Shown here: positions 1,062-33,456 of the stretch, in pieces
Layout: each line of letters begins with the position of its first letter
How positions within the stretch are numbered: position 1 is the stretch's first letter
Program-made: the position numbers and the translations under genes
Assembly: GCA_947624135.1 (NCBI GenBank)
Contig: CANQIV010000001.1
Coordinates: 5,331-69,330, forward strand
Source: an uncultured Bacilli bacterium
GTDB taxonomy: Bacteria > Bacillota_I > Bacilli_A > RF39 > UBA660
DNA: 64,000 nucleotides
Direction of reading: 5' to 3'
The notes under the pieces: generated by a model
The model's input: the letters and a program-made list of their open reading frames with translations, nothing else
Database searches by the model: none
Told to the model about the DNA's origin: nothing

Positions 1062-1077
1062 AAATAGTTCTTTTTTT
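1055..1077 (+). terminator. rho-independent terminator after gap
   Basis: GAACTA-GAAA-TAGTTC hairpin followed by T7 run. Confidence 0.6.
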
Positions 1078-1315
1078 AAAAAAATAATAAATATACAGAA
1101 TTTATAAAAAAATTCAAAAAAAAGTATTAAATTTGAATTAAACCTTGCAGAAATTAAATTTTTACTAGATTAAAAATACATAATTTAAAAATCACTATTT
1201 TGACCTTTATTTCATAATGTGTTATAAATATTAAAATTACTTAAATTTTGTTAAATGAAATTTAGTAAAAATGTGTATTTATTATGACAATATATAAATT
1301 AGATAGATAAATATA

Positions 1316-1345
1316 TTGCAAAAAAACATTTGTTTGTGTTACAAT
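1316..1345 (+). promoter_or_regulatory. sigma-A-like promoter upstream of ruvA
   Basis: TTGCAA(-35) 18 bp TGtTACAAT extended -10, about 18 nt before RBS AGGTGA. Confidence 0.4.
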
Positions 1346-1362
1346 GAAATAGGTGATAAAAT

Positions 1363-8789: not shown

Positions 8790-8819
8790 TTATTATATGT
8801 TAATATATTATTTAGATTG

Positions 8820-8848
8820 TTGACAAGTTCAATAATCTTTTTATATAT
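8820..8848 (+). promoter_or_regulatory. sigma-A-like promoter upstream of ABC transporter gene
   Basis: TTGACA, 17 bp spacer, TATATA. Confidence 0.35.
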
Positions 8849-8913
8849 TTGAATATAAAATTATTTTAATTTTTAATTTAAAGTAGTATAATTATATAGT
8901 TAAGGAGGAAACT

Positions 8914-13863: not shown

Positions 13864-14121
13864 ATGACTAAAACAATAGGTAAGGTAATAGATGTTTATA
13901 TTCCAGAACAATATAAAAATGGCGGATTATTAGATGTTATGGATAGGACTAATATTGGTTTTAAAGTAATGGTTAATAATGATATAAAAGAAATTATAGT
14001 AGAAGCAAATGAATTAAATGCAAAAATAATGAAAAATGATTTAGTTTTAATTATAGAGCAAGATATATCAGGTAAACATTTTATCGATATTGAAATTTAT
14101 GAGGGTGATGGTAATGAATAA
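13864..14121 (+). CDS. hypothetical small protein (85 aa), first gene of helicase operon
   Basis: Good RBS AAGGAAG; stop overlaps helicase start. Confidence 0.4.
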   Translation: MTKTIGKVIDVYIPEQYKNGGLLDVMDRTNIGFKVMVNNDIKEIIVEANELNAKIMKNDLVLIIEQDISGKHFIDIEIYEGDGNE

Positions 14122-16720
14122 TAATGAGTTTCAAATGGTTGGATTATATGATCATAATGCGGATAGTTATAGAAAAATAAAATCTGCATTTGAAACTGGA
14201 GAAAATGTAGTTGGAATTGTACATGCAACAGGTACAGGTAAATCATATAATGCATTACAACTTGCTTATGATAACAAAGATAAAAAAATAGTTTATGTAG
14301 TACCATCAAATGGAATAATAGAACACATAAAAAAAATAATAGAAGATAATCCTAATTTAGATTTAACAAGAGATTTTTCAAATTTAGAATTTAGAACATA
14401 TCAAAGTTTTATATCTTTATCAAAAGAAGAAATAGAAGATATTGATTGTGATTTATTAGTTCTTGATGAATTTCATCATATAGGAGCACCTATATGGGGT
14501 TCAAGAATTAATACGATGATAGAAACTCATTCTAATATGAAAATATTTGGTATGACAGCTTATACAGTAAGAGATAGAGGAACTCAGTATGAAAGAGATA
14601 TGGCAAATCCTGATACAGATGAATTATTTTCTAATAAAATAGAGAGTAGATATGATTTATGTGATGCGATGATAGATGGAATTCTTCCAAAGCCAATATA
14701 TAAAAGTGCTTATACTAATTTAATAGGTTTAGAAAGCAAATTAGAAGAAAGAGTTCAAAAACTAGATGAATCTAATAAAGAATATAAAGAATATATGTCA
14801 ATTTTATCTGATGTTAAAAAGAAAATACATGAAGCCCCAAGTATTCCTAATATTTTAAGAAAAAGTATTAAACCAAATGGAAAATATATTTATTTTTGTC
14901 CACCTTGTGTTGAAGAAGGTACTAATGATATTGAAACAATTAAAAGTCAAGCATTTGAATGGTTTAAACAATTTGTACCTGAGGAAGATATAATTTTTTA
15001 TACATCAACAAGTGATATGGGTGAATATGGAAAACTAAATAGAAATTTATTTTACGATGACATAAGTTTAGATGGTAAAAAAGTAGACAATAAATTAAGA
15101 GTAATGTTTGCAATAAATCAATATAATGAAGGAATACACGCACCTAATATAGATGGAGTAATAATGGGAAGAGGAACTACATCGGATATTGTCTATTTTG
15201 AACAATTAGGTAGGGCACTTTCAGTTCGTGGAAATACAAAAGATATGTTTGATGAATTAGAAAAACATTCAATAGAAGAATTAATAGAAATGTGTAAATC
15301 AAGAGATATCCCTATTAAAGAAAATATATCTAAAGAAGAACTAATTGAAAAGTTAGTAGCTCCCGTTGTTATTGATTTAACTAATAACTATGATTTTATT
15401 AAAGAACTTGAAAATAATTTAAGAGATAGGATTAAAGATATACAAAATAATGGATTAGGCAATCATAGAAACATAAAACTAAAAGATGCATCATTTGATA
15501 TTGAAATAGAAAATCAAGATTTATTTGAAATGTTAAGATATGTTAATGATAGATTAACAATGACATGGGAAGACTATTATGAACTTGCAAAAATTTATTA
15601 TAATCATCATGGGAATTTACTAATACCACAAAGATTTAAGACAAACGATGGTTATACATATGATGAAAACGGAACAATAAATTTAGGCTCATGGTTAACT
15701 GTACAAAAAAGCACATTTTCAAAATTATCTGAAGAGAAAAAACAATTATTGCAGTCAATAGACTTTGTTTCAAATTTTCGTAATGATAGATGGCAAAAAA
15801 ATTTTGAACTAGCAAAAATATACTATAATCATCATGGAGATTTACTAATACCACAAAGATTTAAGACAAACGATGGTTATACATACGATGAAAATGGGAT
15901 AGTAAAACTAGGAATATGGTTAAATAATCAAAAACTTAGGTTTTTAACATTATCCGAAGATAAACAGCAATTATTACAATTAATTGGTTTAGTATTTAAT
16001 ACAAATGATGATAGCTGGCAAAAAAATTTTGAACTTGCTAAATCATATTATGAACATCATGGAGATTTATTAATACCATCTAGATTTAAAACAAACGATG
16101 GTTATACACAAGATGAAAATGGAATAAAATTAGGACAATGGTTAGATAGCCAAAGACAGAGTTTTTCAAAATTATCCAAAGATAGACAACAATTATTACA
16201 ATCCATAGGTTTTGTTATTAGTGTATTTGATGATAGATGGCAAAAAAATTTTGAACTTGCAAAAATATATTATGAACATTATGGTAATTTGTTAATACCA
16301 GATAAATTTAAAACAAACGATGGTTATACATATGATGAAAACGGAATAAATTTAGGAAGATGGTTAAATAATCAAAAAATCAGATTTTCAAAATTATCCA
16401 AAGATAGACAACAATTATTGCAGTCAATAGGTATGATTTGGGATATTAAAAAAAATAATGAAGAAATATACAATTTATGTGAACAATATAATATAGATAT
16501 TGAAAGAAATAAAACTATTCTTAAACATATTTCAATTCAAGAACTAAAATCTAAAATTGAGTTTCTTAAGGTAAATAATTTGGAAATAGTAGGTGAAAAT
16601 GGTGCATTAATTGATATATTTTCTATGAGCAGTCCTGATATGAAAGAAAAATATGGTATTTCAATTGAAGAAATTATAGATGAATATTATGTAAAAAATA
16701 AAGAGACTAAAGGTGATTAA
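14114..16720 (+). CDS. SF2 (DEAD/DEAH-like) helicase with four C-terminal helicase-associated (HA) domain repeats
   Basis: Walker A HATGTGKS, DEAH-like VLDEFHH; four ~75-aa repeats WQKNFELAKIYYxHHGxLLIP..FKTNDGYTYDENG..LG.WL; start re-picked at ATG 14114 after GAGGG. Confidence 0.75.
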   Translation: MNNNEFQMVGLYDHNADSYRKIKSAFETGENVVGIVHATGTGKSYNALQLAYDNKDKKIVYVVPSNGIIEHIKKIIEDNPNLDLTRDFSNLEFRTYQSFISLSKEEIEDIDCDLLVLDEFHHIGAPIWGSRINTMIETHSNMKIFGMTAYTVRDRGTQYERDMANPDTDELFSNKIESRYDLCDAMIDGILPKPIYKSAYTNLIGLESKLEERVQKLDESNKEYKEYMSILSDVKKKIHEAPSIPNILRKSIKPNGKYIYFCPPCVEEGTNDIETIKSQAFEWFKQFVPEEDIIFYTSTSDMGEYGKLNRNLFYDDISLDGKKVDNKLRVMFAINQYNEGIHAPNIDGVIMGRGTTSDIVYFEQLGRALSVRGNTKDMFDELEKHSIEELIEMCKSRDIPIKENISKEELIEKLVAPVVIDLTNNYDFIKELENNLRDRIKDIQNNGLGNHRNIKLKDASFDIEIENQDLFEMLRYVNDRLTMTWEDYYELAKIYYNHHGNLLIPQRFKTNDGYTYDENGTINLGSWLTVQKSTFSKLSEEKKQLLQSIDFVSNFRNDRWQKNFELAKIYYNHHGDLLIPQRFKTNDGYTYDENGIVKLGIWLNNQKLRFLTLSEDKQQLLQLIGLVFNTNDDSWQKNFELAKSYYEHHGDLLIPSRFKTNDGYTQDENGIKLGQWLDSQRQSFSKLSKDRQQLLQSIGFVISVFDDRWQKNFELAKIYYEHYGNLLIPDKFKTNDGYTYDENGINLGRWLNNQKIRFSKLSKDRQQLLQSIGMIWDIKKNNEEIYNLCEQYNIDIERNKTILKHISIQELKSKIEFLKVNNLEIVGENGALIDIFSMSSPDMKEKYGISIEEIIDEYYVKNKETKGD
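15558..16450 (+). repeat. four tandem ~225-bp intragenic repeats encoding HA domains
   Basis: e.g. taataccacaaagatttaagacaaacgatggttatacata recurs at 15621 and 15846 (offset 225 bp). Confidence 0.8.
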
Positions 16721-17945: not shown

Positions 17946-18809
17946 ATGGTTTATTTAAAAAATTTTAAGTTATTAGATGAGGATCAAGAATACTTTATAA
18001 CGTATGAAGAACAGAGAAGAATATTTAATAATAATTATCCCTTGCATTTATTTTCAACTAAATCTTTTGAACACATTGATTTTGATAGAATTACAATTTT
18101 TTATGGTGGAAATGGTTCAGGGAAAACAACATTAATAAATATTATTTCACAAAAATTAAAAGCTTCAACAAAGACTCCAATTGATAAAGGTTCATATTTT
18201 GATTTATATGTTAAACATTGCGATTATGAAATGTCTTTTGATCAACCAGTTGAAATAAAATTAATAACAAGTGATGATGTTTTTGATTATCTTTTAAATG
18301 TACGTTCAATAAATTCAAATGTTAATAGACAAAAAGAAAAATTAAGTAAAGAGTATTTAGATTATAAATTTAATAAAAATGTAAATTCATTCGATAATTA
18401 TTATGAATTAAAAACAAGTTATGAAACAAAAAGAAATTCAATGTCTAAATTTGTTAGAGAACGATTGGGAAATAACAATATTATTGAGTGGTCAAATGGT
18501 GAATCAGCTCTTATGTTTTGGGAAAGAGAAATACAAGAAGATGCTATTTACATTTTAGATGAACCAGAAAATAGTTTATCTGCAGAAAATCAATTAAAAT
18601 TAAAAAAATTTATAGAAGATTCTGCTAGATTTTATAATTGTCAATTTATAATTTCAACTCATTCTCCATTTTTACTAAAACTTATAGATGCTAAAATTTA
18701 TGATTTAGATGAAATTCCTGTGACTACTAAAAAATGGACAGAGCTACCTAATGTTTTAGCATATTATAATTTTTTTAAAGAATATGAAAATGAATTTAAT
18801 AAAAAATAG
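17946..18809 (+). CDS. ABC/AAA_21-like ATPase, uncharacterised (island cargo)
   Basis: Walker A GGNGSGKTTL, Walker B IYILDEPE, downstream ISTHSP (H-loop like); 287 aa. Confidence 0.7.
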   Translation: MVYLKNFKLLDEDQEYFITYEEQRRIFNNNYPLHLFSTKSFEHIDFDRITIFYGGNGSGKTTLINIISQKLKASTKTPIDKGSYFDLYVKHCDYEMSFDQPVEIKLITSDDVFDYLLNVRSINSNVNRQKEKLSKEYLDYKFNKNVNSFDNYYELKTSYETKRNSMSKFVRERLGNNNIIEWSNGESALMFWEREIQEDAIYILDEPENSLSAENQLKLKKFIEDSARFYNCQFIISTHSPFLLKLIDAKIYDLDEIPVTTKKWTELPNVLAYYNFFKEYENEFNKK

Positions 18810-18940
18810 ATAATATAAAATTTTATATTTAAATTTATAAAGTTCTAATATATTCATCAGGTCGATAAAATAGTTTTAAATAAAAATAGCTATACTTTTA
18901 TTGATACTTTAGAAAAATAAATGTAGTTTACTTAAGGAAA

Positions 18941-19162
18941 ATGTCTGCAAGAAACTTACGATATATATATAAATTTGTTAGTGAATTTGATAATGATGAA
19001 TTTTTGCAAGGAGTCCTTGCAAAATTACCTTGTAATCATAATCAAGTATTATTAGATGAAAATAAAGTAAATGCAGAATTAGCTTTATTTGATAAAAAAT
19101 ATAAATTTCATGATATAATTTTATTAGTTGAAATACTTGGAGGTAATTATGTATTCTATTGA
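18941..19162 (+). CDS. hypothetical small protein (73 aa)
   Basis: RBS AAGGAAA; 3' end overlaps next ORF. Confidence 0.35.
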   Translation: MSARNLRYIYKFVSEFDNDEFLQGVLAKLPCNHNQVLLDENKVNAELALFDKKYKFHDIILLVEILGGNYVFY

Positions 19163-20150
19163 AGAATTAGCAAATTATATTTCACTAGATGAAATCCCAA
19201 ATGCTTGGAATAATTGTTTTGAAGAAATAAAAAAATCATATAATTATGATTGGTTGAAAAAATATTACTTTGATTTAATTTTAAATTATTATGAACTTGA
19301 TGATAATTTTAAAGAAAGATTTATTGATCAATTAAATTTACTAAATAGTGATAATAAACTTAATCTTATATGCTATATAATGTATTATATTTTATTTATA
19401 GCAGATGACAAGAATTATTATAATGTATGGTCTTGGAAATCAACGTTGAATATATTTAAAAATAATGGTAGTTATATGATTCCTGTTGTAGCGTTATTAT
19501 GTGGTTACGAATTTCATATAAAGAATATGAAATATAGAAATTTTGATAATGAACAAATTGTATTGCAAAAATATAATATTAAATTAGTTTGCACGAATGA
19601 CAAAATAAAGTATGGTATAGATGGAATTAGATTTAGTCAAATGATGTGGGGATCATACTTTATGAAAGGTAATTTGATTCAAATAGGAAGATTACAATAT
19701 GAAATCGTTGTTGAAAATTTTGATAAATTAGATAAATACTTTGAAGAAAAACATAAATATATTTATATTCACATACCAAAAGGTAAAGATTTGAATGAAA
19801 AAGATGTTAATGAATCATTATGTTTGGCAGATAAATATATAAAAAAATATTATCCTGAATTAAAAAATGAAAAACTATCATATTATACAAAGACTTGGTT
19901 ATTGAGTCCTGAAATAAAAGAAATATTATCTAATGATAGTAATATAATAAAATTTCAAAATAAATTTAATATTATAGAATATGAAGAAAATATTAATGAT
20001 TTTTTGAATTTTGTATTTGATGTAGTTATAGATAAAGTAGAATATAATGATTTACCTGAAAAAACAACTTTACAAAAAGAACTAAAAAGAAAACTTTTAA
20101 ATAATGAAAAATTACATTTAGGATTAGGAATTATAAAAAATATACCTTAA
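19149..20150 (+). CDS. hypothetical protein (333 aa), no recognisable motif
   Basis: RBS GGAGG 7 nt upstream of ATG 19149; followed by strong terminator. Confidence 0.5.
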   Translation: MYSIEELANYISLDEIPNAWNNCFEEIKKSYNYDWLKKYYFDLILNYYELDDNFKERFIDQLNLLNSDNKLNLICYIMYYILFIADDKNYYNVWSWKSTLNIFKNNGSYMIPVVALLCGYEFHIKNMKYRNFDNEQIVLQKYNIKLVCTNDKIKYGIDGIRFSQMMWGSYFMKGNLIQIGRLQYEIVVENFDKLDKYFEEKHKYIYIHIPKGKDLNEKDVNESLCLADKYIKKYYPELKNEKLSYYTKTWLLSPEIKEILSNDSNIIKFQNKFNIIEYEENINDFLNFVFDVVIDKVEYNDLPEKTTLQKELKRKLLNNEKLHLGLGIIKNIP

Positions 20151-20355: not shown

Positions 20356-20598
20356 TTATTCAAATAATTTATCCATTGTTACACATAAAACAACAGAAAT
20401 CTTATACAAAGTATCAACAGAGCAACCAACAGCTCCTTTTTTATATTCGATTCTTCTAATGAAATCATAAGATTTCCCAACATCAACAGCTAATTGTTCT
20501 TGAGTAATACCAGCAATTTTTCTATATTTCCTAATATTCTCTGATACTTTTGACATAATATTATCTTCAAATTTTAAATCTCTTTTAAAAGTAGTCAT
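20356..20598 (-). CDS. XRE-family helix-turn-helix transcriptional regulator
   Basis: HTH_3-like ITQEQLAVDVGKSYDFIRRIEYKK; start chosen at Met27 of the track ORF, preceded by AGGGTG RBS. Confidence 0.75.
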   Translation of the reverse strand: MTTFKRDLKFEDNIMSKVSENIRKYRKIAGITQEQLAVDVGKSYDFIRRIEYKKGAVGCSVDTLYKISVVLCVTMDKLFE

Positions 20599-20654
20599 AC
20601 TATCACCCTTAATAATATTCTCTAATAAAAGGAATTTTATGTCCGGGAACAGAA

Positions 20655-20698
20655 AAGTCCTGTATGGTATTGTCAAGTCCTGTTTTTTGATATATAAT
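20655..20698 (+). promoter_or_regulatory. divergent promoter/operator region
   Basis: direct repeats AAGTCCTGT at 20655 and 20675 overlapping a TTGTCA-17-TATAAT promoter facing the zinc-ribbon gene. Confidence 0.35.
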
Positions 20699-20748
20699 TA
20701 TATGTAGACAATAATTCTTGTTTAAAGTTGTAAGGAGTGTGGAGTAAC

Positions 20749-21555
20749 ATGGCAATTATTAAATGTCCAAAATGCAACGAAGATGTTTCTGATAAATCAA
20801 CTAAATGTGTTCATTGTGGTCAGGTTTTAATTGAAGAACCAAAGCTATTTTGCGAAGAATGTGGAAATGAAATAAAAAAAAGTGATAAGGTATGCAGTAA
20901 ATGTGGTTGTCCAGTAGATAAAAAGCATGAACCGCAACAAGTTGAAGTTACAAAAGTAAAATTGGGTGGAGGAATATCTAAGAAAACAATTATTATAGGA
21001 ATTGTTTCTATTCTAGTTATTGTTGGAATTATCTTTGCAGTAATAACTATTAATAAGAAGAATGAAGAAAGAAAAGCAAGAGAATTAAGCGAACAATATA
21101 AAGAAAATTTAAGTACTATAACATACAAAATGTTAAATGGAGCTGCACAAGCTGAAGATTGTGGCAACAAAATCAAAAAAGTATGGTCTAACACAATTTG
21201 GGAAGATGATGATCCAGAAACAGATAAATATACTAAAAAGAATGGTGTATTTAATGATGATTTCAATGATTCTTTATCAACTTTATTTGCAGATCCAGAT
21301 TTTATTAAAATTACTGATGGTGTTGAACAAAATAAAACTGAAGTTAATAAGTTAATGAAAGATATGAAAAACCCGCCAGAAGAATGGACAGATGCTTATA
21401 GAGATTTAAAAGATTATTATGATGACTATTTAACTCTTACTAATTTATGCACAAATCCAAGTGGTAGTTTAACTACATATTCTTCTAATTTTAGTAATGC
21501 AGATACTGATACAGTTAATGGATACAGCAAAATGAAGTCATATTTAGATTACTAA
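20749..21555 (+). CDS. double zinc-ribbon membrane protein, hypothetical
   Basis: CPKCN..CVHCG and CEECG..CSKCGC ribbons, one TM helix, acidic extracellular domain. Confidence 0.5.
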   Translation: MAIIKCPKCNEDVSDKSTKCVHCGQVLIEEPKLFCEECGNEIKKSDKVCSKCGCPVDKKHEPQQVEVTKVKLGGGISKKTIIIGIVSILVIVGIIFAVITINKKNEERKARELSEQYKENLSTITYKMLNGAAQAEDCGNKIKKVWSNTIWEDDDPETDKYTKKNGVFNDDFNDSLSTLFADPDFIKITDGVEQNKTEVNKLMKDMKNPPEEWTDAYRDLKDYYDDYLTLTNLCTNPSGSLTTYSSNFSNADTDTVNGYSKMKSYLDY

Positions 21556-21593
21556 TAGAATTAGTAATCTTTTTATTTTAGAGGGAGCAAATT

Positions 21594-22799
21594 ATGAAAA
21601 AAATATATTCAATTTTAATTATTCTATTATGTTTTATGTGTTTAACAGGTTGTGGTGGTAAAAATGAAACCAAATCAAATGATACTAAGTATAAAGAAAC
21701 ATATAATCATTCTGATTTGATTGTTCATTCAGATTATGATAAAATCAATGATTTTTTAAACGGGCTATTCAATGAACTTGATTTTGATGGAAAAATGAGA
21801 TTAGCTAGTTCAAATGAAATAGAAGATTATTTTACATTTGCATATATTAATGAGAAAGCAGATACTGTTTTTACATTTTATTTTGGCAAAGATGAGTCAT
21901 TTATGTTTGTAAATATAATTTATGATAAAAATAATAATAATTCAGTAGGTTTATCTAAAGAAGTTATTAAATATTCAAAATTTGGATTTAGTACAGCTGA
22001 TTTATCTACTATAAGAAATATACTCACTTCTTCTTCAACTATAGATGATACTATTGTAGGAAATTATATTGTTTCAAATTTATCAAGTGGTAATATGACT
22101 ATTAAATCAAAAGATAAATATGGTAAAGAAGATAATGCTAAACAAGAAACACAATCATCAAATAATAATATCCAAAATAATACTCAAAGCAATAGTAATG
22201 AGAATAATACAAACAATATTACAAATAATAATACAAATAATAATACAAATAATAATACAAATAATAATACAAATTCAAACAATCAAACAAATACTCAATC
22301 AAATAATAATTCTAATACACAACAAAATAATCAACAACAAACACAACCTGAAAATAATAATCATTCAGTTAGTGTAAGTAAACAAAATGCATTAAAATCA
22401 GCTAAATCATATCTAAATATTTCTGCATTTTCAAAAAAAAGATTAATAGAACAATTAGAATATGAAAAGTATTCTACTGAAGATGCAACTTATGCTGTTG
22501 ATAATTGTGGTGCTAATTGGAATGAACAAGCATTAAAATCAGCTAAATCATATCTAAATATTTCTGCATTTTCTTATAGTGGTTTGAAAAAGCAATTAGA
22601 ATATGAAGGTTTTACTAGTGAACAAGCAAGTTATGGTGTAAATAATTGTGGTGCTAATTGGAATGAACAAGCAATTAAGTCAGCAAAATCATATTTAAGT
22701 TTTTCATCTTTTTCACATGATGGATTAGTTCAACAACTAGAGTATGAGGGATTTACTCATGAACAAGCTGAATATGGGGTTACTCAAAATGGATTATAA
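21594..22799 (+). CDS. lipoprotein with N/Q-rich linker and three Ltp-like (superinfection-exclusion lipoprotein family) C-terminal repeats
   Basis: Lipobox LTGC; 3 x ~48-aa repeat (A/N)LKSAKSYL..S.FS...L..QLEYE.(F/Y)..E.A.Y(A/G)V.NCGANWNEQA resembling the phage Ltp repeat family. Confidence 0.6.
   Translation: MKKIYSILIILLCFMCLTGCGGKNETKSNDTKYKETYNHSDLIVHSDYDKINDFLNGLFNELDFDGKMRLASSNEIEDYFTFAYINEKADTVFTFYFGKDESFMFVNIIYDKNNNNSVGLSKEVIKYSKFGFSTADLSTIRNILTSSSTIDDTIVGNYIVSNLSSGNMTIKSKDKYGKEDNAKQETQSSNNNIQNNTQSNSNENNTNNITNNNTNNNTNNNTNNNTNSNNQTNTQSNNNSNTQQNNQQQTQPENNNHSVSVSKQNALKSAKSYLNISAFSKKRLIEQLEYEKYSTEDATYAVDNCGANWNEQALKSAKSYLNISAFSYSGLKKQLEYEGFTSEQASYGVNNCGANWNEQAIKSAKSYLSFSSFSHDGLVQQLEYEGFTHEQAEYGVTQNGL
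22225..22275 (+). repeat. 12-bp tandem repeat (aataatacaaat) x ~4 inside lipoprotein gene
   Basis: direct reading; encodes NNTN low-complexity linker. Confidence 0.8.
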
Positions 22800-22905: not shown

Positions 22906-23007
22906 ATATTCTTTTTGATAAGAAATAATTTGTTTTATAATTATGTTTTAAACTAAAAGTACTATTATCTATTTCATATTGTAAATTATATTTTAAATTG
23001 TTATCTG

Positions 23008-23277
23008 CTACTTGCTTGGCTTGATTTTAAAACATGTAATAAATTTTTCTAAATTTAGTTTTTTATAGGTAGATTCACATGTTTTAAATTTATAATATAT
23101 TTTTTCAGTAATTTTAATATTGTTTGCTTTCGTAGTAAGTAATTGAGTAATATTTTCCAGTCTATCTAAAGAATAAGCATGAGGTCTGGAGGTTCTAAAT
23201 TTCGCATATTTATTTGATATATGACCTTCCAATTGTTTACTTACAATATTAATCATAATAAAATCTTTTATTACCAC
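23008..23277 (-). pseudogene. orphan 89-aa ORF, possible remnant of a mobile-element gene
   Basis: no RBS or recognisable domain; located immediately outside the left att-like repeat. Confidence 0.2.
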
Positions 23278-23334
23278 AAAAAAATATCAACTTTATTTAG
23301 AAATTGATACTTTTCTATATTAAGTTCAAACTAC

Positions 23335-23364
23335 AAAAGTTCGAACAGATTTCCTAATGGAGCG
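23335..23364 (+). repeat. left att-like direct repeat (copy of tRNA-Gly 3' end region)
   Basis: aaaagttcgaacagatt...aatggagcg matches 33360-33389 at 26/30 positions; preceded by inverted repeat TATCAA...TTGATA. Confidence 0.6.
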
Positions 23365-23509
23365 ATTGTGGAAGATATCTACAACTTTTGCTCATAAACA
23401 ATTTGATATATAAAATATCAATCTTTAATAATATTCTAACACAAATTGCCTAGAATAGCTCGGAAAATTTGCTAATTTGTGGTAAAATATTTTATGGATG
23501 TGAATATTT

Positions 23510-25285
23510 ATGAAATTAAAATCTATAAAAATTGAAAATTTTAAATCTTTTGGAAATGATAATAACTTGTTGATTTTAGAAGATATAAATACGATAATTG
23601 GTAAAAATGAATCTGGTAAAAGTAATCTTATTGAATGTTTAAGCAAAATTAATTTATCTGGAATAGATGATCGTGACTTTTTTCTTAATATAAATAAATA
23701 TACGAAGTTAAAGCCAAAGATAGGAATTGTTTTAATACCATCAGAAGAAGAAAAAAATAAACTAAAAGGAGAAACGCTATTAACAATTAATAATAGATTT
23801 GATATTGATATTGAGGGAAGTTTGACAGAATCAATAAAAAATAATACTATTTTTCAGAATAATAGAGATAAAATGAATGAATTAAATCAAAATGTAAGTA
23901 ATTTATTCAGTGATCAGGAACAACGTAAACATTTCAAGGACCTTATTGAAATGATTAATAATGCAGAAAATAAAATTTTTATTAATTATACATATATTGA
24001 TGGAATAATCAATAAAATAAACAAAAGTGAGGAGTTTTCAGAATTTCTAAGGTATTTACAAGATTGCATTTCATATTTAAATAGTTTAAAAAATTCTTTT
24101 CCAACTTTTATTGAAATAGATAATATAACTTTAAAATCCAAGTATACAAGAAAGAATTTAGTTGATGATAACGATTCTAAAATTATGCTTATTCATCTTT
24201 TAAATGCTATGGAAATGGATATGGATTATTTGATGAGGTATTGGGATTTAGATAACCAAGCTGATAAAGAAAATTATATTGAAGATTTTAATTATAAAAT
24301 ACAAGAATTAATTAGTAAATTTAATGATTTTTATTCACAAGAACGTGTTTATATGAAAGCATCTTTTGAAAACGATTCGTTAAATTTTGTTGTTAAAACA
24401 ACAAAAAAATATATGGATTTTGATGAAAGAAGTAATGGACTTAAATGGTATTTAAATATGTATATCCAACTTGTATCAAAAACAAAAAACTCTAATATTA
24501 ATAATTATGTAATTTTAATAGATGAACCAGGTGTTTATTTACATGTCAATGCACAGAAAGAAGTTTTAAAACTCTTTGAAGACCTTTCTAAGAAAAACAA
24601 TATGATAATCTATACAACTCACTCTCCGTTTATGATTTATGAAAATAAACTTTATAGGGTAAGATTAATTATAAAAGATGAAAATGGTAATAGCAATATT
24701 GGTAATAAGTATTATTCATTGCCACATAAAATGGGGTCTAAAACTGAAACAATTACACCTTTATTAACTGCCATTGGTATGAATATGAATTATAATATTT
24801 TATCTTTTAATAGCCAAGAGGTAAATATTATTACGGAAGGTATATCAGATTATAATTACATAAAAGGTTACTTTCTTTTAACAAAAGAAAAAATGCCTAA
24901 TATTATTCCATCAACAAGTGTGGATAATATACATAATATTGTCTCTATTTTGATTGGCTGGGGATGTAATTTTAAAATTATTATGGATCAAGATAATTCT
25001 GGTAGAGGACAATATAAAGTCTTAATTAATAAAGGATTGACTGATATTTCTAATATTTCTTTTGTGGATGGGCTAAATATTCCTGATAATAAAAAAACTA
25101 TAACTATTGAAGACATATTTTCAGAAAAAGATAAACAACAAATTGGAATAACAAATGAAGACTATAAAGAGGAAAAAGCATATTATTCATTAGAAACATT
25201 AAAAAGAATTGAAAACAAGGATTTTGAATATGATCAAGAAACTATGTGTAATTTTGCAAAAATAATTTTTCAATTATTTGATTAA
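23510..25285 (+). CDS. OLD-family ATP-dependent endonuclease (ABC ATPase + Toprim)
   Basis: N-terminal Walker A GKNESGKSNL, Walker B ILIDEPGVYLH, HSP motif; C-terminal Toprim IITEGISD. Confidence 0.75.
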   Translation: MKLKSIKIENFKSFGNDNNLLILEDINTIIGKNESGKSNLIECLSKINLSGIDDRDFFLNINKYTKLKPKIGIVLIPSEEEKNKLKGETLLTINNRFDIDIEGSLTESIKNNTIFQNNRDKMNELNQNVSNLFSDQEQRKHFKDLIEMINNAENKIFINYTYIDGIINKINKSEEFSEFLRYLQDCISYLNSLKNSFPTFIEIDNITLKSKYTRKNLVDDNDSKIMLIHLLNAMEMDMDYLMRYWDLDNQADKENYIEDFNYKIQELISKFNDFYSQERVYMKASFENDSLNFVVKTTKKYMDFDERSNGLKWYLNMYIQLVSKTKNSNINNYVILIDEPGVYLHVNAQKEVLKLFEDLSKKNNMIIYTTHSPFMIYENKLYRVRLIIKDENGNSNIGNKYYSLPHKMGSKTETITPLLTAIGMNMNYNILSFNSQEVNIITEGISDYNYIKGYFLLTKEKMPNIIPSTSVDNIHNIVSILIGWGCNFKIIMDQDNSGRGQYKVLINKGLTDISNISFVDGLNIPDNKKTITIEDIFSEKDKQQIGITNEDYKEEKAYYSLETLKRIENKDFEYDQETMCNFAKIIFQLFD

Positions 25286-25296
25286 GGAGGTGTATT

Positions 25297-27276
25297 ATGG
25301 CTTTTAAAAGTTATAGTTGGTCTATAGGAACGACAAGTTTTAGAACTAGTCAATTAAATTATAAAATTGAAAGGCAATTACAATTATTAAAGAAATTTTG
25401 GAATGACAACCCTAATTTGAATTGGGACAATGAAACTCAAGAAAAATATTATAATTATTTAAAAGAAAATAATTTTTTATATGGTGAGGCTAGGATTCCA
25501 GATAAGGATGCTAGAGAAAAGACATCAGGTTTAGTAGATATTGGTGTATTAACAAGTGATAGAAAATTAACTGAAGTAGGTTCTAACATTGAACAACTAT
25601 TATATAAAGTAATGAACAAAGATAATATCTTTATGATATCTGAAGATAGCTATAAATATTTATTACAATTTTTAAAACTACAAATTAATAATGCTAATGA
25701 AGGTATAAAAATAAAACCTTTTATTGCTCTTATTTACTTAATTGAAAAATTAGATTACTTATCTTATGATGAATTTACTTATTTGCTTCCACTTTGCAAA
25801 AATAAATATGATGTTAAGAAAATGGCTCAAACGATTAAAAATACTGTAAGAGTTGGGTTTCCTGTTGATGATATTATAACCGAAAAAATACTTGATATGA
25901 ATAATTATATTCAAGCATTATATGATTTTAGCAGAGATTATCCTGTAACCGAAGAAACATTTGAAAGAATAGGATTAAATAGAAAAAGTAAAGCATATGA
26001 TAGACCTTATAATGCAATTTATCATACTTTAGTTGATTTAGTGTTTCATTTAAAGCATAATAATCTTAATGAAAGGCTTCCAAAATATAAGGAATTGTTT
26101 GAAGAATGTAAAAAAATATCTGGTAATGCTAGAATGCTATGGCAAAACTATTTATTTATGGGTGTTAAAATTAATAAAATAGATGAAGAATTTGATAACA
26201 AATTTAAATCATTGGATATTAGTTTATCTAGAAATATTATTGATTTTAAAAAAGAATTTTTTTTAAAAATGCATTTATTTAAATGGAAAGTAAATTTAAG
26301 AGATTATTTTGATTTAAATAAGCGATACTTTTCATTAACAGATATAATAAGATTTGAAGATGAAAAGATAGAATTAGATATGTTGCCTAAATATTATTTT
26401 AAAGATATTATTGATGATTTATTAAATGAAAACTTACTTGATAATGAACAATATTTAAAACAATTTTATTCTGATATTCCACTAGAAAGTATTTCTGAAT
26501 TATATAAAATTGATATAACTAATATTGTTAATAACATTAATAATGACTTAGGAATAAACTTAACACCAGAAAATGTAAATTCTTATATTAAAGATGAAAA
26601 GCTTAAAAATTTTAATGACTTAATTGATCATAAATTTAAAAATGAAGATTTAATTAGAATATTAGAACAAATAAAAAATAGAAATGATGAAGAACTAAAT
26701 TCATATATAACAGATAACGCAGATATTCCAACCATTTTTGAATATATACTTGGTATAGCATGGTATAGAATTAGTGGCAAAAAAGGAAATATTTTAGATT
26801 TTATGAATTTAAGTTTAGATGCAGATTTTTTGCCTAAGACTCATGCTAGTGGAGGAATGGCTGATATAGTTTATAAATATGAAAATAATTCATACCCTAA
26901 ACATGATTTATTAATAGAAGCAACTTTATCTGAATCAACTGGACAAAGAGTTATGGAAATGGAGCCTGTATCTAGACATCTTGGTGAAAATATAAAGCTT
27001 ACAAATAATTTAAATGATTATGCTTTATTCGTTGCTCCTAATTTGGAAGAAAGAATAATATTGGATTTTAGAAACATGAAAACAAGATTCTATCCAAAAG
27101 GTAATGGTGAGTTTATAGAAGGATTAAAAATTATACCAATCGACATAAACATATTAATGAAAATATTACAAAACAATATAAATTATAATGAAATATACAA
27201 TTGGTTTGATAAAGCATTTAAATCTACTATTCCAGATCCACTTTGGTATAGAGAAGAAATTTTAAAAAATATATAA
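25297..27276 (+). CDS. candidate type IIS restriction endonuclease (partner of tandem MTase)
   Basis: 659 aa, no NTP-binding motif; C-terminal block (YR.SGKKG ... GGMADIVY ... HDLLIEAT) has FokI-like cleavage-domain layout (PD...(D/E)x(K/T)); context with double-domain MTase. Confidence 0.4.
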   Translation: MAFKSYSWSIGTTSFRTSQLNYKIERQLQLLKKFWNDNPNLNWDNETQEKYYNYLKENNFLYGEARIPDKDAREKTSGLVDIGVLTSDRKLTEVGSNIEQLLYKVMNKDNIFMISEDSYKYLLQFLKLQINNANEGIKIKPFIALIYLIEKLDYLSYDEFTYLLPLCKNKYDVKKMAQTIKNTVRVGFPVDDIITEKILDMNNYIQALYDFSRDYPVTEETFERIGLNRKSKAYDRPYNAIYHTLVDLVFHLKHNNLNERLPKYKELFEECKKISGNARMLWQNYLFMGVKINKIDEEFDNKFKSLDISLSRNIIDFKKEFFLKMHLFKWKVNLRDYFDLNKRYFSLTDIIRFEDEKIELDMLPKYYFKDIIDDLLNENLLDNEQYLKQFYSDIPLESISELYKIDITNIVNNINNDLGINLTPENVNSYIKDEKLKNFNDLIDHKFKNEDLIRILEQIKNRNDEELNSYITDNADIPTIFEYILGIAWYRISGKKGNILDFMNLSLDADFLPKTHASGGMADIVYKYENNSYPKHDLLIEATLSESTGQRVMEMEPVSRHLGENIKLTNNLNDYALFVAPNLEERIILDFRNMKTRFYPKGNGEFIEGLKIIPIDINILMKILQNNINYNEIYNWFDKAFKSTIPDPLWYREEILKNI

Positions 27277-27277
27277 A

Positions 27278-27307
27278 AGATAGGTGTTGAGTATCTATCT
27301 TTTTTTT
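27278..27307 (+). terminator. rho-independent terminator after candidate REase gene
   Basis: AGATAG-loop-CTATCT hairpin followed by T8. Confidence 0.5.
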
Positions 27308-27362
27308 GATATAATGTTATTAGAAAATACGATGCCGAAAATGGAAATGGAGATGTAAAAAT

Positions 27363-29330
27363 ATGAAAACTATTTCAATTAATAATAGAAGATATATAGG
27401 TAGTAAAGCAAGAATGATTGATTTCATTAATGAAACTATAAAAAAAGAAAAAATTGAGTTTTCTTCATTTTTAGATTTATTCGGTGGAACGGGAATAGTT
27501 GGAAATTTTTTTAATGACCAAAAAACAAAAATATATGTTAATGATTTGTTAAAATCTAATTACTTATCATATTTAGCATGGTTTGGAAATGAAAAAATAG
27601 ATAAAAACAAAATAAAGATTTTTATAAATAAATATAATTCTCTTTCTAATTTAGAAGAAAATTATTTTTCAATTAATTTTAGTGATACTTATTTTAGTAA
27701 AGATAATTGTAAAAAAATTGGTTATATAAGAGAAGATATTGAAGCAAATTATCTTTCCAATAATTTAAATACTAGAGAAAGAGCTATTCTTATAACATCT
27801 TTATTATATGCTATGGATAAAATTGCAAATACAGTTGGGCATTATGATGCATATAGAAAAAATGGAAATTTAGATAAAAAATTAGAATTGTGTATGCTTG
27901 ATTTAAAATCCAACATTAATAATAAAAATAATAAAGTCTTTAATGAAGACTCTAATGAACTTGTAAAAAGTATAAAAGCAGATGTTGTTTATATTGATCC
28001 CCCATATAATTCAAGACAATATTCTGATGCATATCATTTATTAGAAAATGTTGCAATGTGGGAAAAAAATGAAGTTCATGGTGTTGCAAAAAAAATGGAA
28101 AGAAATGGAATTAAAAGTAAATATTGCTCTGTGTCAGCTCCTCTTGCTTTTAAAGATTTAATTGATAACATAGATGCTAAATACATAATTGTTTCATATA
28201 ACAATATGGGAACAAAAGGTGCAGGAAGGTCACAAGCTAAAATAAGTGATGATGATATAATAAATACTTTAAGATTGAAAGGAAAAGTAAAAGTATATGA
28301 AACTGATTTTAATCAGTTTAACACAGGAAAAACCCATATTGACAATCATAAAGAAAGATTATTTATATGTAAAGTTGGAAAAAGCACAAAGAAAAAAACT
28401 AGACATATAGAACCGATTATTGATAAAGTAAAATCTCCATTAAATTATACGGGTGGGAAATATAAATTATTAAATCAAATAATACCTATATTCCCTAATA
28501 ATCTAGACTTATTTGTAGATTTATTCTCTGGTGGATCTAATGTTGGTGTTAATGTTAATGCTAAAAGAATAGTATGTGTAGATAAACAAGAAGAGATTAT
28601 TAGAGTTATGGAATTGTTTAAAAAATATGAAGATGGTTTTATTATAAGTTCTTTAGAAAAAATTATTGATAAATATAATTTAAGTAATTCTTTATTAAAT
28701 GGATATAAAGCATATAATTGTACTAGCGATAAGGGATTAGGAACATATAATAAATCAAAATATTTAGAATTGAGAAAAGATTATAATAATATGAGAGATA
28801 ATTCTACAGAAAAAGATTTATTATTTTTAACATTAGTAATTTATGGATTTAATAATCAAATTAGATTTAATTCTAATGGTGAATTTAATATGCCTGTCGG
28901 GAAAAGAGATTTTAATAATTCTTTAAGAAAAAATTTAAAAAATTTTATAACAAAACTGAAGTCAAAAAATATAGAATTTATTAATTCTGATTTTAGAGAA
29001 TTTGCAATTGAAACAACCAATAACACTTTAGTATATTGCGATCCACCTTATTTTTTAGGGACAGCAAGTTATAATGAAAATGGTGGATGGACAAAACAAG
29101 ATGAAATAGATTTATTAAATTATTTAGCTGTTTTAGATAGTAAAGGTGTAAAATTTGCATTATCAAATGTAATCGAACATAAGGGTAATAAAAATATTAT
29201 ACTTGAAGCTTGGATTAAAGAACATAAATATAATGTTCATATAATTGATTGTGATTATAATAATTCTAATTATCACAAACAACAAGGAAGTATTACGAAA
29301 ACAACAGAAGTCTTAATAACAAATTACTAA
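27363..29330 (+). CDS. tandem two-domain N6-adenine DNA methyltransferase (Dam/D12 class fused pair)
   Basis: two FxGxG motifs (FLDLFGGTG, FVDLFSGGS) and two DPPY motifs (YIDPPYNS, YCDPPYFL); 655 aa. Confidence 0.85.
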   Translation: MKTISINNRRYIGSKARMIDFINETIKKEKIEFSSFLDLFGGTGIVGNFFNDQKTKIYVNDLLKSNYLSYLAWFGNEKIDKNKIKIFINKYNSLSNLEENYFSINFSDTYFSKDNCKKIGYIREDIEANYLSNNLNTRERAILITSLLYAMDKIANTVGHYDAYRKNGNLDKKLELCMLDLKSNINNKNNKVFNEDSNELVKSIKADVVYIDPPYNSRQYSDAYHLLENVAMWEKNEVHGVAKKMERNGIKSKYCSVSAPLAFKDLIDNIDAKYIIVSYNNMGTKGAGRSQAKISDDDIINTLRLKGKVKVYETDFNQFNTGKTHIDNHKERLFICKVGKSTKKKTRHIEPIIDKVKSPLNYTGGKYKLLNQIIPIFPNNLDLFVDLFSGGSNVGVNVNAKRIVCVDKQEEIIRVMELFKKYEDGFIISSLEKIIDKYNLSNSLLNGYKAYNCTSDKGLGTYNKSKYLELRKDYNNMRDNSTEKDLLFLTLVIYGFNNQIRFNSNGEFNMPVGKRDFNNSLRKNLKNFITKLKSKNIEFINSDFREFAIETTNNTLVYCDPPYFLGTASYNENGGWTKQDEIDLLNYLAVLDSKGVKFALSNVIEHKGNKNIILEAWIKEHKYNVHIIDCDYNNSNYHKQQGSITKTTEVLITNY

Positions 29331-29339
29331 GATAATAAA

Positions 29340-29383
29340 AGATGATATAAGCATTTAAATTAATGCTCAATATCATCTTTTTC
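29340..29383. terminator. bidirectional terminator between MTase and relaxase genes
   Basis: AGATGATAT...ATATCATCT 9-bp stem with nested AGCATT/AATGCT hairpin, T run after; overlaps relaxase stop. Confidence 0.5.
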
Positions 29384-30739
29384 TATTGCATAATCTTTTA
29401 AATTATTTAATTTACTTGGATTAGAAAGCAAATTGAAATTATCTTTATCTAAAGCACCATGTTCATATAATTCTTTAGCAAATTCTTCATATCTTTTGTC
29501 TTTTTTAACAAAAATTTTATCCATTAAGAATTGAACTAATCGATAAATCATATCTTTAAAATGTTCAAGTGTTGACTTTAAAGAATGATTTTCTTCTTTT
29601 AATTCTTGAATTTCATTTTCTTTTTCTTTGATATTTTCGTTTAATTTATCAACTTCTTGGTTAAGTGATTCATTATTTTTTGTTAATAATTTTAATCTTT
29701 GTCGATTACTAATTAACTCATTACTAATTTCTTTTAAAGTAACGGATAACTCTTGAATGTTTTGATATTCAGCAATAGTTTTATCTATTAAATCTATAAA
29801 AACAATTGCTTTATCACGATCCTTAACATCTATAACTAACTGATTTTTAATAAGCCCTTTTGCTTTTAAGCTTTCAAGAATTTCTTTAATTTCAGAAATA
29901 TTATTAGATAATTTTTCTGTTTTTTCTTTAGCACTTTTTAAATTATTTTGATGTATTTCAATAGACTTTTTAATCTTTTGGTAGTTTTCCATTTCAGTTA
30001 TATGATAATCTCGATTTCTGCCTTTTAATTTAGCCTTTAATTGATAATTTACTTGATATTCTTTGTTAAAAGATTCCATACAACGCACTCTCATTTTATC
30101 TTGAATTTTTGTTAATGATTCTTTAGTAAAGACATCAGATTTTCCAACTTGTTTAGACATTCCATATTTATTTTTATATTTAACTGGAACACCAATTATA
30201 TGAAGATGTGGACTTGTTTCATCATAATGAATGATTGCACTTGCTATTTTAAAGTTAGGGACAACAGTTTCTAAATCGTTAACTTGTTCTTTAAATACAT
30301 TAGTCATTTTCTTTTTATAATCAATAACTTTTGTATTCCAAAATTCCATATCACCAAGCTCAATAATTATTTCACAAGCCAAATCTTTTTTAGAATTATT
30401 GCTAATATGAGTGAAGTAATCTTTTATTTTTCTATCATCGCGAGCTTGTTTGTTATTATATTCAAGTTTTGCTTCTTCAAACTCATCTATATATAATTTT
30501 TTAATATCATCAACTATCGAAAATGAACCTCTAATAACTTCAATATTTTCTCTATCATTATCATATTTTCTACAATTATGATTATCACATTTTGCTAATC
30601 CTGATGCACTTTGAATAGCACTATTACCCATAGAAGTAGAACCACTAACATTACTTTTACCACTTTTTCTAGAACTATTTTTCTTATTTTTATCATTACT
30701 TAAATGGAAAGAGTAACTTAAGGTTGCTATATAAATCAC
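29360..30739 (-). CDS. MobV/Pre-family relaxase (plasmid recombination enzyme)
   Basis: Mob_Pre motif III HYDETSPHLHIIGVP (HxDExxPHxH), upstream HN.R-like segment, C-terminal coiled coil. Confidence 0.8.
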   Translation of the reverse strand: MIYIATLSYSFHLSNDKNKKNSSRKSGKSNVSGSTSMGNSAIQSASGLAKCDNHNCRKYDNDRENIEVIRGSFSIVDDIKKLYIDEFEEAKLEYNNKQARDDRKIKDYFTHISNNSKKDLACEIIIELGDMEFWNTKVIDYKKKMTNVFKEQVNDLETVVPNFKIASAIIHYDETSPHLHIIGVPVKYKNKYGMSKQVGKSDVFTKESLTKIQDKMRVRCMESFNKEYQVNYQLKAKLKGRNRDYHITEMENYQKIKKSIEIHQNNLKSAKEKTEKLSNNISEIKEILESLKAKGLIKNQLVIDVKDRDKAIVFIDLIDKTIAEYQNIQELSVTLKEISNELISNRQRLKLLTKNNESLNQEVDKLNENIKEKENEIQELKEENHSLKSTLEHFKDMIYRLVQFLMDKIFVKKDKRYEEFAKELYEHGALDKDNFNLLSNPSKLNNLKDYAIEKDDIEH

Positions 30740-30780
30740 ATCTCCTTTCTTTGTTTGTTTTTAGAGTATATTTTGTCTTT

Positions 30781-30849
30781 GACAAAATTATTAACCCCCT
30801 AGGAATTTTGTCATACTAACAAAATACTGGGGGCTAAGGCTCGCCTTAG
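30781..30849. promoter_or_regulatory. putative oriT / mob promoter region
   Basis: GACAAAATT/AATTTTGTC 9-bp IR, CCCCC/GGGGG IR, CTAAGG-CTCG-CCTTAG IR, all in the 150-bp leader upstream of the relaxase gene. Confidence 0.4.
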
Positions 30850-30890
30850 AATCCGAAATTAACTATCGTTAATTTTATAAGTAGAAGAAA

Positions 30891-32825
<1,935 letters not shown>

Positions 32826-32924
32826 CTAAAATCATCTCCTTTTCTCATTTTAAATTCAAAAAAGAGAAGTAAAGGTACTACTATAAAATAATACTTTCAC
32901 TTCTCTAAACTACATTGTAAGACT

Positions 32925-32939
32925 CTTGGTAACTTGGTT
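32925..32939. promoter_or_regulatory. perfect inverted repeat GGTAAC-TTG-GTTACC upstream of recombinase gene
   Basis: direct reading; candidate operator. Confidence 0.25.
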
Positions 32940-33000
32940 ACCATCTATATTAATTATACAACATTTGTCGTAAAAAGTCCATTGTCTAGGAAGTGGTGTA

Positions 33001-33327
33001 TTACTTGATTTTATTGATATATTCTTCTAAATCTGATAATTCAATTTTATTTTTCAAATTTTTAATATAAATATCAGTAGAATAATTAAATGCAAGAAAT
33101 GTTATACCTTTGATAATAATTCTATGAGGTTCTACATAGTTAAGATTAGATTTATCAATTTTTCTAATACTGCCGTTAATGAAAGTAGGAGTCGTCTTAC
33201 AAAACTCACAAATAAACTCTAATCTTTGTTTTAAAGACTTTTCAAAGGGTATTTCTTGTTTAAGTATCTTAATCATAAACACCATCCTTCCTTTAGGATG
33301 ATTTCTTTGTAACAACAAAAAAACCAA
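33001..33327 (-). CDS. hypothetical protein between recombinase and tRNA (possible directionality factor)
   Basis: 108-aa ORF, no motif recognised. Confidence 0.3.
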   Translation of the reverse strand: MVFLLLQRNHPKGRMVFMIKILKQEIPFEKSLKQRLEFICEFCKTTPTFINGSIRKIDKSNLNYVEPHRIIIKGITFLAFNYSTDIYIKNLKNKIELSDLEEYINKIK

Positions 33328-33359
33328 TCTTTCGATTGATTTCTATATATCAATGTTCG

Positions 33360-33389
33360 AAAAGTTCGAACAGATTCGTCAATGGAGCG
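33360..33389 (+). repeat. right att-like direct repeat overlapping tRNA-Gly 3' end
   Basis: see 23335-23364; flanked by ATTGAT...ATCAAT inverted repeat and tandem GTTCGAA half-sites. Confidence 0.6.
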
Positions 33390-33456
33390 GGTGATGGGAA
33401 TCGGACCCACGTTATCAGCTTGGAAGGCTGGAGTTCTACCATTGAACTACACCCGC
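33383..33456 (-). tRNA. tRNA-Gly (anticodon UCC)
   Basis: cloverleaf folded by eye: acceptor GCGGGTG/CACCCGC, D-arm AGTTCAATGGTAGAACT, anticodon loop CUUCCAA, T-arm GTGGGTCCGATTCCCAT, encoded CCA. Confidence 0.85.

Follow-up and report, generated by a model that had tools for sequence, protein, structure and literature searches.

The window analysed here, a 64,000-nucleotide (nt) stretch of DNA from an uncultured Bacilli bacterium (contig CANQIV010000001.1; G+C content ~23%), carries a gene for a protein of 591 amino acids (aa) that we conclude, from its sequence and a structural model, to be an OLD-family ATPase-Toprim protein. The gene is the first cargo gene of a small mobilizable element and lies directly upstream of a restriction-modification (R-M) pair. 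The reading that we favour, with a probability of roughly 0.8, is that the protein serves as an autonomous class 1 OLD defence enzyme and is the leading cargo of that element. An original prediction, made from the sequence alone, had left open whether this is a class 1 single-gene OLD or one coupled to the adjacent R-M pair; the single-gene alternative is favoured by the analysis below, and the coupling is weakened as an obligate system.

All of the ATPase and Toprim motifs quoted in that prediction were located by regular expression in the 591-aa open reading frame (ORF), namely GKNESGKSNL (residue 31), ILIDEPGVYLH (335), HSP (371) and IITEGISD (440); with the further motifs DQD at residue 493 and TIED at residue 532. 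Homologues were numerous, with 1964 in a 90% database (full length among those listed) and, in a 50% library, 4913 at E ≤ 0.001 and 387 at E ≤ 1e-30, most of those listed being full length at ~600 aa. A family alignment of 63 sequences, reaching down to 27% identity, showed G31, G36, K37, S308, G310, D338, H345, E443, G444, D447, D493, E534 and K556 to be invariant, with E339, H371 and D495 kept in at least 90% of sequences; the number of homologues and this conservation of motif residues argue that the motifs are not chance matches. The signature motif SNG corresponds to residues 308–310. In comparisons made with the family profile, the ATPase region aligned with the heads of Rad50 and of Ts OLD, the class 1 OLD of Thermus scotoductus (PDB 6p74), and the Walker B/D-loop segment paired with the Ts OLD sequence VIIEEPEMYLH, which holds the D-loop residue H283 (PMC7049728). 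Pfam matches were confined to the ABC ATPase part (AAA_15, 1.8e-21; AAA_21, 1.4e-14; weak SMC_N and DUF2813). The best PADLOC model was Old (1.6e-26; residues 241–535 against profile positions 189–487) and, among the matches listed, this was the only one to reach into the C-terminal part, the best stretches of AriA, GajA, PtuA and HEC-01A being confined to the ATPase part. An AlphaFold2 (AF2) model places a mostly helical insert (approximately residues 104–275) between the ATPase core elements.

The C-terminal domain is predicted to be a Toprim nuclease domain. When the family profile was compared with 6p74, the match (E 2.3e-18) ran from Walker B through the EGxxD and DxD motifs, and Pfam PF20469 (OLD-like_TOPRIM) was matched individually by 38 of the 63 family members. 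In Ts OLD, metal A is bound by E377, D431 and D433 and metal B by D381, S478 and E480 (PMC7049728). The corresponding candidate ligands are E443, D493 and D495 for metal A, and D447, T532 and E534 for metal B; E443, D447, D493 and D495 were placed by profile alignment, and the pairing of T532-x-E534 with S478-x-E480 by motif and conservation only. The AF2 model, built on the alignment, has a mean predicted local distance difference test score (pLDDT) of 90.4 and shows beta-alpha-beta units in the C-terminal domain, with E443 following the strand at 438–442 and D493/D495 following the strand at 487–492. Its best PDB match by Foldseek was again 6p74 (E 2.3e-13; ~13% identity in the structural alignment), with GajA and the retron-Eco8 OLD also in the list. 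The PADLOC, profile and Foldseek results agree with the OLD/GajA-like architecture originally proposed; the acidic Toprim residues are present and conserved on alignment, and profiles place the protein in the OLD family and not in a non-nuclease ABC family.

Among all ORFs of the element (23335–33389), no UvrD-like helicase, reverse transcriptase or split Toprim was found, and on this sequence evidence the protein is class 1 under the published scheme (PMC6755086, PMC10568477) because it lacks any such partner. As had been predicted, there is no GajB partner and the gene that follows (25297–27276) has no P-loop: it encodes an RE_AlwI endonuclease without a Walker A motif. An Rfam search over the element returned the tRNA only and no other non-coding RNA, which rules out a retron or other non-coding RNA component.

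The proposal that the gene is element cargo was also borne out, by a pair of 30-nt direct repeats at tRNA-Gly whose copies lie 10,025 nt apart. Within the repeats are the OLD gene, the restriction gene, a methylase gene, a Mob_Pre relaxase gene, a serine recombinase gene and a 108-aa ORF (Table 1). To judge from these parts, the segment is an integrative mobilizable element of ~10 kb at the 3' end of tRNA-Gly. The serine recombinase also gave a weak Zn_ribbon_recom match (0.0026) under the curated cut-off. Short metagenome contigs with exactly this cassette start at the equivalent of window position 23358, inside the left repeat, as assemblers break at repeats. Sister contig L108 matches the window at 97% identity from the left flank, across the repeat and up to position 23447 (aligned span 23001–23447); beyond that point a 358-aa weak-HD protein (322–1398, minus strand) replaces the OLD and R-M genes, most of the Mob gene being missing. 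A sister element with the same left end and other cargo indicates that the cargo slot is exchangeable. An empty integration site was sought by means of an 89-aa flanking ORF, which led to sister elements carrying other cargo and to no empty site.

Table 1. Features of the OLD gene, its element and R-M cassette in the window, and partner genes at related loci.
Feature	Locus	Position	Strand	Basis or remark
OLD-family class 1 protein, 591 aa, single ATG-started ORF	window	23510..25285	+	ABC ATPase, helical insert, C-terminal Toprim
Walker A/P-loop GKNESGKS, residues 31–38	window	23600..23623	+	Regular expression; G31, G36, K37 invariant in 63-sequence alignment
Walker B and D-loop ILIDEPGVYLH, residues 335–345	window	24512..24544	+	D338, H345 invariant; E339 nearly so
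Predicted Toprim nuclease domain, ~residues 436–560	window	24815..25189	+	Family profile, conservation, AF2 topology
Left direct-repeat copy, attL-like, 30 nt	window	23335..23364		Repeat search; 26/30 identical to 33360–33389
Right direct-repeat copy, attR-like, 30 nt	window	33360..33389		Overlaps last 7 nt (3' end) of tRNA-Gly
tRNA-Gly(TCC), integration target	window	33383..33456	-	ARAGORN; Rfam tRNA, 67 bits
Mob_Pre-family relaxase, 459 aa, mobilisation function	window	29360..30739	-	Pfam Mob_Pre 2.2e-13
Large serine recombinase, 644 aa, element integrase	window	30891..32825	-	Pfam Resolvase 7.3e-33, Recombinase 1.6e-17
108-aa ORF adjoining right end, inside element	window	33001..33327	-	ORF list; no Pfam match
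AlwI-family (type IIS-like) restriction endonuclease, 659 aa	window	25297..27276	+	Pfam RE_AlwI 6.7e-72; PADLOC REase_II 2.9e-35
Two-domain D12 (Dam-like) N6-adenine methyltransferase fusion, 655 aa	window	27363..29330	+	MethyltransfD12 2.5e-60, two stretches
Promoter-like TTGATA-18-AATAAT upstream of OLD	window	23403..23432	+	Consensus scan, weak
Shine-Dalgarno-like GGAGGTG for restriction gene	window	25286..25292	+	Directly after OLD stop codon, read from sequence
Putative AT-rich hairpin with T-run, overlapping TG-extended TTGAGT-17-TATAAT, ahead of methylase	window	27278..27315	+	Inference
Type I hsdM-hsdS partners	L043, L045, L046			
hsdM-hsdS-OLD homologue-177-aa ORF-KAP NTPase-hsdR	L046	1756-11726		Embedded between hsdS and hsdR
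Type III partner	L042			
MmeI-like partner	L044			
Eco57I-type methylase and PstI-family nuclease partner	L047			
Eco57I-like 1072-aa enzyme partner	L029			
N6_N4 methylase partner	L041			
BrxL (BREX) partner	L025			OLD homologue after BrxL
608-aa OLD-like gene upstream of AlwI-type cassette	L112-L114	L112 4048-5874		Three different flanks; 24% identical to window OLD; keeps EGxxD, DxD, xE; restriction enzyme 83–84% identical
Gabija GajA-GajB pair upstream of AlwI-type cassette	L115	2575-5797		Beside serine recombinase; restriction enzyme 84% identical
AlwI-type cassette without any OLD-family gene	L195			Restriction enzyme 84% identical

The two genes downstream of OLD form an R-M pair of AlwI-family type, as read from an RE_AlwI endonuclease beside a methylase with two catalytic domains. 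The pairing of RE_AlwI with a two-domain adenine methylase is the usual layout for asymmetric-site enzymes of the AlwI family. The methylase was also matched by the PADLOC model MTase_II (4.9e-205) and has a DPPY motif at residues 212 and 560, one in each D12 domain. Only 11 nt separate the OLD stop codon from the restriction gene. The ribosome-binding site of that gene directly follows the OLD stop, and a consensus scan found no terminator-like site anywhere in 23250–29500; OLD and the restriction gene therefore probably share a transcript. The promoter scan returned 65 sites against 59 expected from shuffles and is a pointer, not proof. With these signals the methylase appears to have its own promoter, and the restriction gene, which seems to have no promoter region of its own, would be read from the OLD transcript. 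Over its final ~50 nt (window 25240–25296), the OLD gene is similar to the promoter-like stretch found ahead of the restriction gene at two related loci without this OLD (L112 5950–6000 and L195 4095–4145). The similarity hints at a direct fusion of OLD to the cassette leader, with the OLD 3' end lying over a former promoter region, but the sequences are very AT-rich and chance may account for it.

We then compared the gene neighbourhoods of OLD homologues. A contig scan with the single OLD protein gave no relatives, and they were found when the scan was repeated with the alignment. Close homologues (57–70% identity) occur in eight distinct contexts, including the window. Three of these are operonic with R-M genes: the window itself; a type III Mod-Res locus, in which the Res gene overlaps the OLD homologue by 26 nt; and a locus with an MmeI-type enzyme, whose gene overlaps the homologue by 20 nt. 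The other five are stand-alone: they adjoin ribosomal protein genes or a polysaccharide cluster, form the cargo of a small integrase/RepA_N element or have other, unrelated surroundings. Homologues on plasmids likewise stand alone, and chromosomal, non-mobile loci adjoin ribosomal protein, polysaccharide or permease genes. At 9 of the 30 loci in the near-family GTDB set, R-M or BREX genes immediately precede the OLD homologue in the same orientation, mostly 1 to 50 nt away, and the remainder adjoin housekeeping or unrelated genes. Among distant relatives R-M genes were again the commonest neighbour families (HsdR three times, N6_N4 methylase three times, D12 twice, DpnII and GmrSD), with aconitase, ribonucleotide reductase and similar genes also found alongside. 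No conserved partner emerged among 105 operonic neighbour proteins, which formed small clusters and no large one; this rules out conserved protein partners of whatever kind. A conserved small downstream partner was ruled out as well, as the ORFs of 67–99 aa that follow stand-alone homologues are mutually unrelated.

Three further features of these loci were observed. Gene order is polar, in that relatives (L021–L100) nearly always have the R-M genes upstream and OLD last; the window and L064 have OLD first. At L046, the order in which the OLD homologue lies within a type I system resembles the arrangements used in 'guilt by embedding' defence discovery. Finally, L007 carries a split pair on the minus strand (8543–9798), a 255-aa AAA_15 protein and a 150-aa OLD-like_TOPRIM protein, 2.3 kb from a stand-alone OLD homologue of 68% identity; this would be a second OLD-family locus, either PARIS-like or decayed.

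The R-M cassette was followed in the same way. The restriction enzyme has 3822 homologues, and beyond near-identical copies its relatives reach 93% identity; the closest OLD relative besides near-identical copies is 70% identical. In the wider AlwI family, approximately 6 of 79 metagenome loci have a neighbour positive with the OLD hidden Markov model (HMM) and ~90% are without an OLD-family neighbour; across these 79 loci, no OLD-HMM-positive neighbour was found among AlwI relatives at 63–71% identity. Each module thus occurs without the other, which rules out obligate coupling of OLD to R-M. Co-occurrence with R-M genes, which had been suggested for study in the case of the downstream 659-aa protein, is clearly recurrent in relatives and it is optional; it does not define an obligate system, since each module exists alone and the OLD partners share no common protein. 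Repeated filling of the slot upstream of the cassette, which was surveyed for the OLD family only, could reflect either selection for synergy or ordinary shuffling within defence islands.

Class 1 OLDs with a described defence role are P2 Old, Vc OLD of Vibrio and Escherichia coli YbjD (PMC12445682, PMC12392090, PMC13261556). P2 Old strips anticodon arms from tRNA after RecBCD inhibition (PMC12445682); the action of Ts OLD and Vc OLD is on DNA, which they nick or degrade (PMC7049728, PMC12392090). By extension, the sensor or switch of the window protein would be its ABC ATPase, which probably dimerises by way of the helical insert, and its two-metal Toprim site would be used to cut nucleic acid once a phage or other invader had been detected. 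The substrate could be DNA, by nicking or 5'-3' degradation as for the Thermus and Vibrio enzymes, or tRNA as for P2 Old; and the outcome would be a block to phage replication or an aborted infection. OLD would act alone with the R-M pair as first-line restriction, giving two defence layers on one element. Autonomy is favoured because the homologues mostly stand alone, because they have no conserved partner and because the cassette also occurs without OLD.

A number of points weigh against an autonomous OLD nuclease, some in the protein and others in its surroundings. An NCBIfam search with the OLD protein gave no family above its cut-off. The C-terminal 196 residues by themselves matched nothing in Pfam or PADLOC, even at permissive thresholds, so that assignment of the Toprim domain depends on the predicted structure, on conservation and on the family profile. 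Against 6p74, global TM-scores were only 0.32–0.36 by whole-chain rigid-body superposition, as expected for multi-domain proteins whose mobile domains are superposed rigidly. The H-loop histidine (residue 371, nt 24620–24622, in TTHSP) is glutamine (TTQLP) in part of the clade at 57–62% identity, including the MmeI-linked homologue, with the other ATPase motifs kept; and the promoter and terminator calls are consensus matches only. In E. coli YbjD, the anti-phage phenotype persists without the Toprim domain and in a Walker A mutant (PMC13261556), and nuclease action is therefore not guaranteed as the effector step. That precedent, together with a window Toprim too divergent to match any profile alone, would suit an ATPase-led action through target binding or sequestering, or through an ATP-regulated toxic conformation, with the Toprim domain dispensable or in another role. 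We consider this quite unlikely, as K556 and the six metal-binding positions vary little or not at all down to 27% identity, which argues for selection on catalysis, and as the nuclease residues are needed in each of P2 Old, Ts OLD, Vc OLD and HEC-04.

The points that lie in the surroundings bear on a different alternative, in which OLD and the R-M pair would be one system and OLD a second-line sentinel that responds once restriction has failed or been blocked; its signal might be anti-restriction proteins (such as DNA mimics), as in PARIS or PrrC, or restriction breaks left unrepaired. About 12 of 38 distinct near-family loci, about one third, are operonic with R-M or BREX genes, the near homologues overlapping or abutting type III, MmeI-like, type I, PstI-like, Eco57I-like or BrxL genes. 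Moreover, three of the four contexts of the closest cassettes (83–98% identity in the restriction enzyme, window included) carry some OLD-family module upstream, so that three different modules hold one slot, and linkage in the window itself is tight. There are precedents in PARIS, where AriA senses Ocr; in PrrC, which is released when Stp inhibits EcoprrI; and in embedded ABC-ATPase defences. Across 79 GTDB loci, methylase/HsdS-like matches gather at gene offsets -1/-2 from OLD (12 of 138, versus 0 of 413 at +3 to +10), in a comparison biased by seeds drawn from the neighbours themselves. However, most homologues have no R-M neighbour, and the AlwI-family loci without an OLD-family neighbour include one with 84% identity in the restriction enzyme. 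The R-M partner types share no protein, which makes a specific contact of the PrrC-EcoprrI kind unlikely, and defence genes gather in islands anyway; we therefore regard the sentinel role as doubtful. The position of the gene near a recombinase and a relaxase on a mobilizable element might instead suggest that it serves the element, either as a toxin for addiction or stabilisation or by processing DNA when the element excises or is mobilised; AAA_21 is labelled an AbiEii-type toxin domain in Pfam, and R-M systems can themselves behave as addiction modules. This seems very improbable given that homologues also occupy chromosomal, non-mobile contexts, that they have no conserved antitoxin-like partner and that the sister element swaps its whole cargo for an unrelated HD-like gene, which means that the cargo is not needed for element function.

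With an autonomous defence enzyme as the preferred reading, the window protein counts as one more example of the OLD family, which is already known, rather than as a new system, and the general theme is already published. In reviews class 1 OLDs are isolated genes, away from other defence genes (PMC10568477), a textbook description that is partly contradicted by recurrent, optional operon joining with R-M systems of all types; Schiltz et al. noted that, of 837 old genes, 107 belong to species-specific operons, which in some cases include defence genes. The statement in the original prediction that an OLD coupled to an R-M pair is not a described pairing was too strong, as preprints describe ABC-ATPase/Toprim modules at R-M-like loci, with HEC-04 and 'guilt by embedding' of ABC-ATPase defences (Payne et al., 10.1101/2024.01.29.577857), and OLD-ABC/Toprim modules at BREX loci (BREX survey, 10.1101/2025.10.09.681413). 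Few class 1 OLDs have been tested (P2 Old, Vibrio OLD and E. coli YbjD) and reviews leave their general defence role open. The locus brings in a large clade from gut Firmicutes (387 clusters at E < 1e-30), whose members are carried by small serine-recombinase elements and are often operonic with restriction systems. They are annotated merely as 'AAA family ATPase' and escape the Pfam Toprim model, and counts of defence systems therefore probably miss the clade. The compact cassette is well suited to asking whether a class 1 OLD is protective alone, or acts in synergy with restriction or guards it. Tentatively, and with the odds against it, the clade might even be a portable restriction back-up module for R-M of any type (I, II, IIS, IIG, III and BREX), firing when restriction is inhibited or overwhelmed; if so, it would extend the logic of PARIS and PrrC to fused OLD nucleases and would explain why the AlwI-type cassette recruits different OLD-family modules upstream.

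Genes to the left of the element were also considered. The Ltp lipoprotein, helix-turn-helix (HTH) and small ABC ATPase genes (17.9–22.8 kb) were ruled out as parts of the element, since they lie outside the direct repeats. At window 17946–20150 are a small ABC ATPase of 287 aa (AAA_15/AAA_21; its PADLOC matches to mad3/PtuA/AriA are weak), a 73-aa ORF and a 340-aa GNAT_C protein; these genes may form a separate defence or toxin-type module. Window 20356–22799 holds a divergent XRE-type HTH gene (minus strand) and genes for a membrane protein with a double zinc ribbon and for a 401-aa lipoprotein, in which three Ltp repeats (PF07553, 5e-47) are accompanied by an Asn-rich linker; the Ltp family has a known link to superinfection exclusion by prophages. 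Further upstream, just before a Sua5/YciO/YrdC gene, window 14090–16720 encodes a protein of 876 aa in which ResIII helicase and HA domains are combined, as read from precomputed Pfam matches to an 868-aa gene call in the identical contig L001.

Among known systems, the closest are the class 1 OLDs (Ts OLD, P2 Old, Vc OLD and YbjD/OldB). The window protein has counterparts of all six metal ligands and of the D-loop histidine, and likewise is without a helicase or reverse-transcriptase partner; 6p74 is its best profile and fold match, and carriage on a mobile element is common to it, P2 Old and Vc OLD. It differs in its low identity to 6p74, in belonging to a Firmicute/gut clade and in a Toprim that itself escapes Pfam; and, in contrast to the picture of class 1 OLDs as isolated genes (PMC10568477), it is apparently co-transcribed with a restriction gene. 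P2 Old monitors RecBCD, in contrast to the window clade, whose AddAB hosts lack RecBCD.

The ATPase-Toprim architecture is also shared with GajA of Gabija (class 2), whose models and structures were matched; however, the window element has no UvrD-like GajB, and the GajA PADLOC matches cover ATPase segments only and fall far below Old. A Gabija pair fills the same upstream slot of the AlwI-type cassette at L115. With PARIS (class 4), the likeness lies in the AriA-type ABC ATPase (PADLOC AriA, 3.2e-22, residues 1–376) and possibly, by analogy, in the concept of a Toprim effector that backs restriction and is set off by anti-restriction proteins; AriA and AriB are separate genes, whereas the window protein is fused and has no AriB/DUF4435 gene beside it. 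HEC-04 and its kin in Hma, type I R-M and BREX loci are, like the relatives of the window OLD, fused ABC ATPase-Toprim proteins attached to modification-based defence. HEC-04 was not among the best 25 PADLOC matches listed for the window OLD, the two sequences not having been compared directly; and HEC-04-type loci are embedded, whereas the window OLD lies upstream of a type IIS AlwI-type R-M pair and not inside it.

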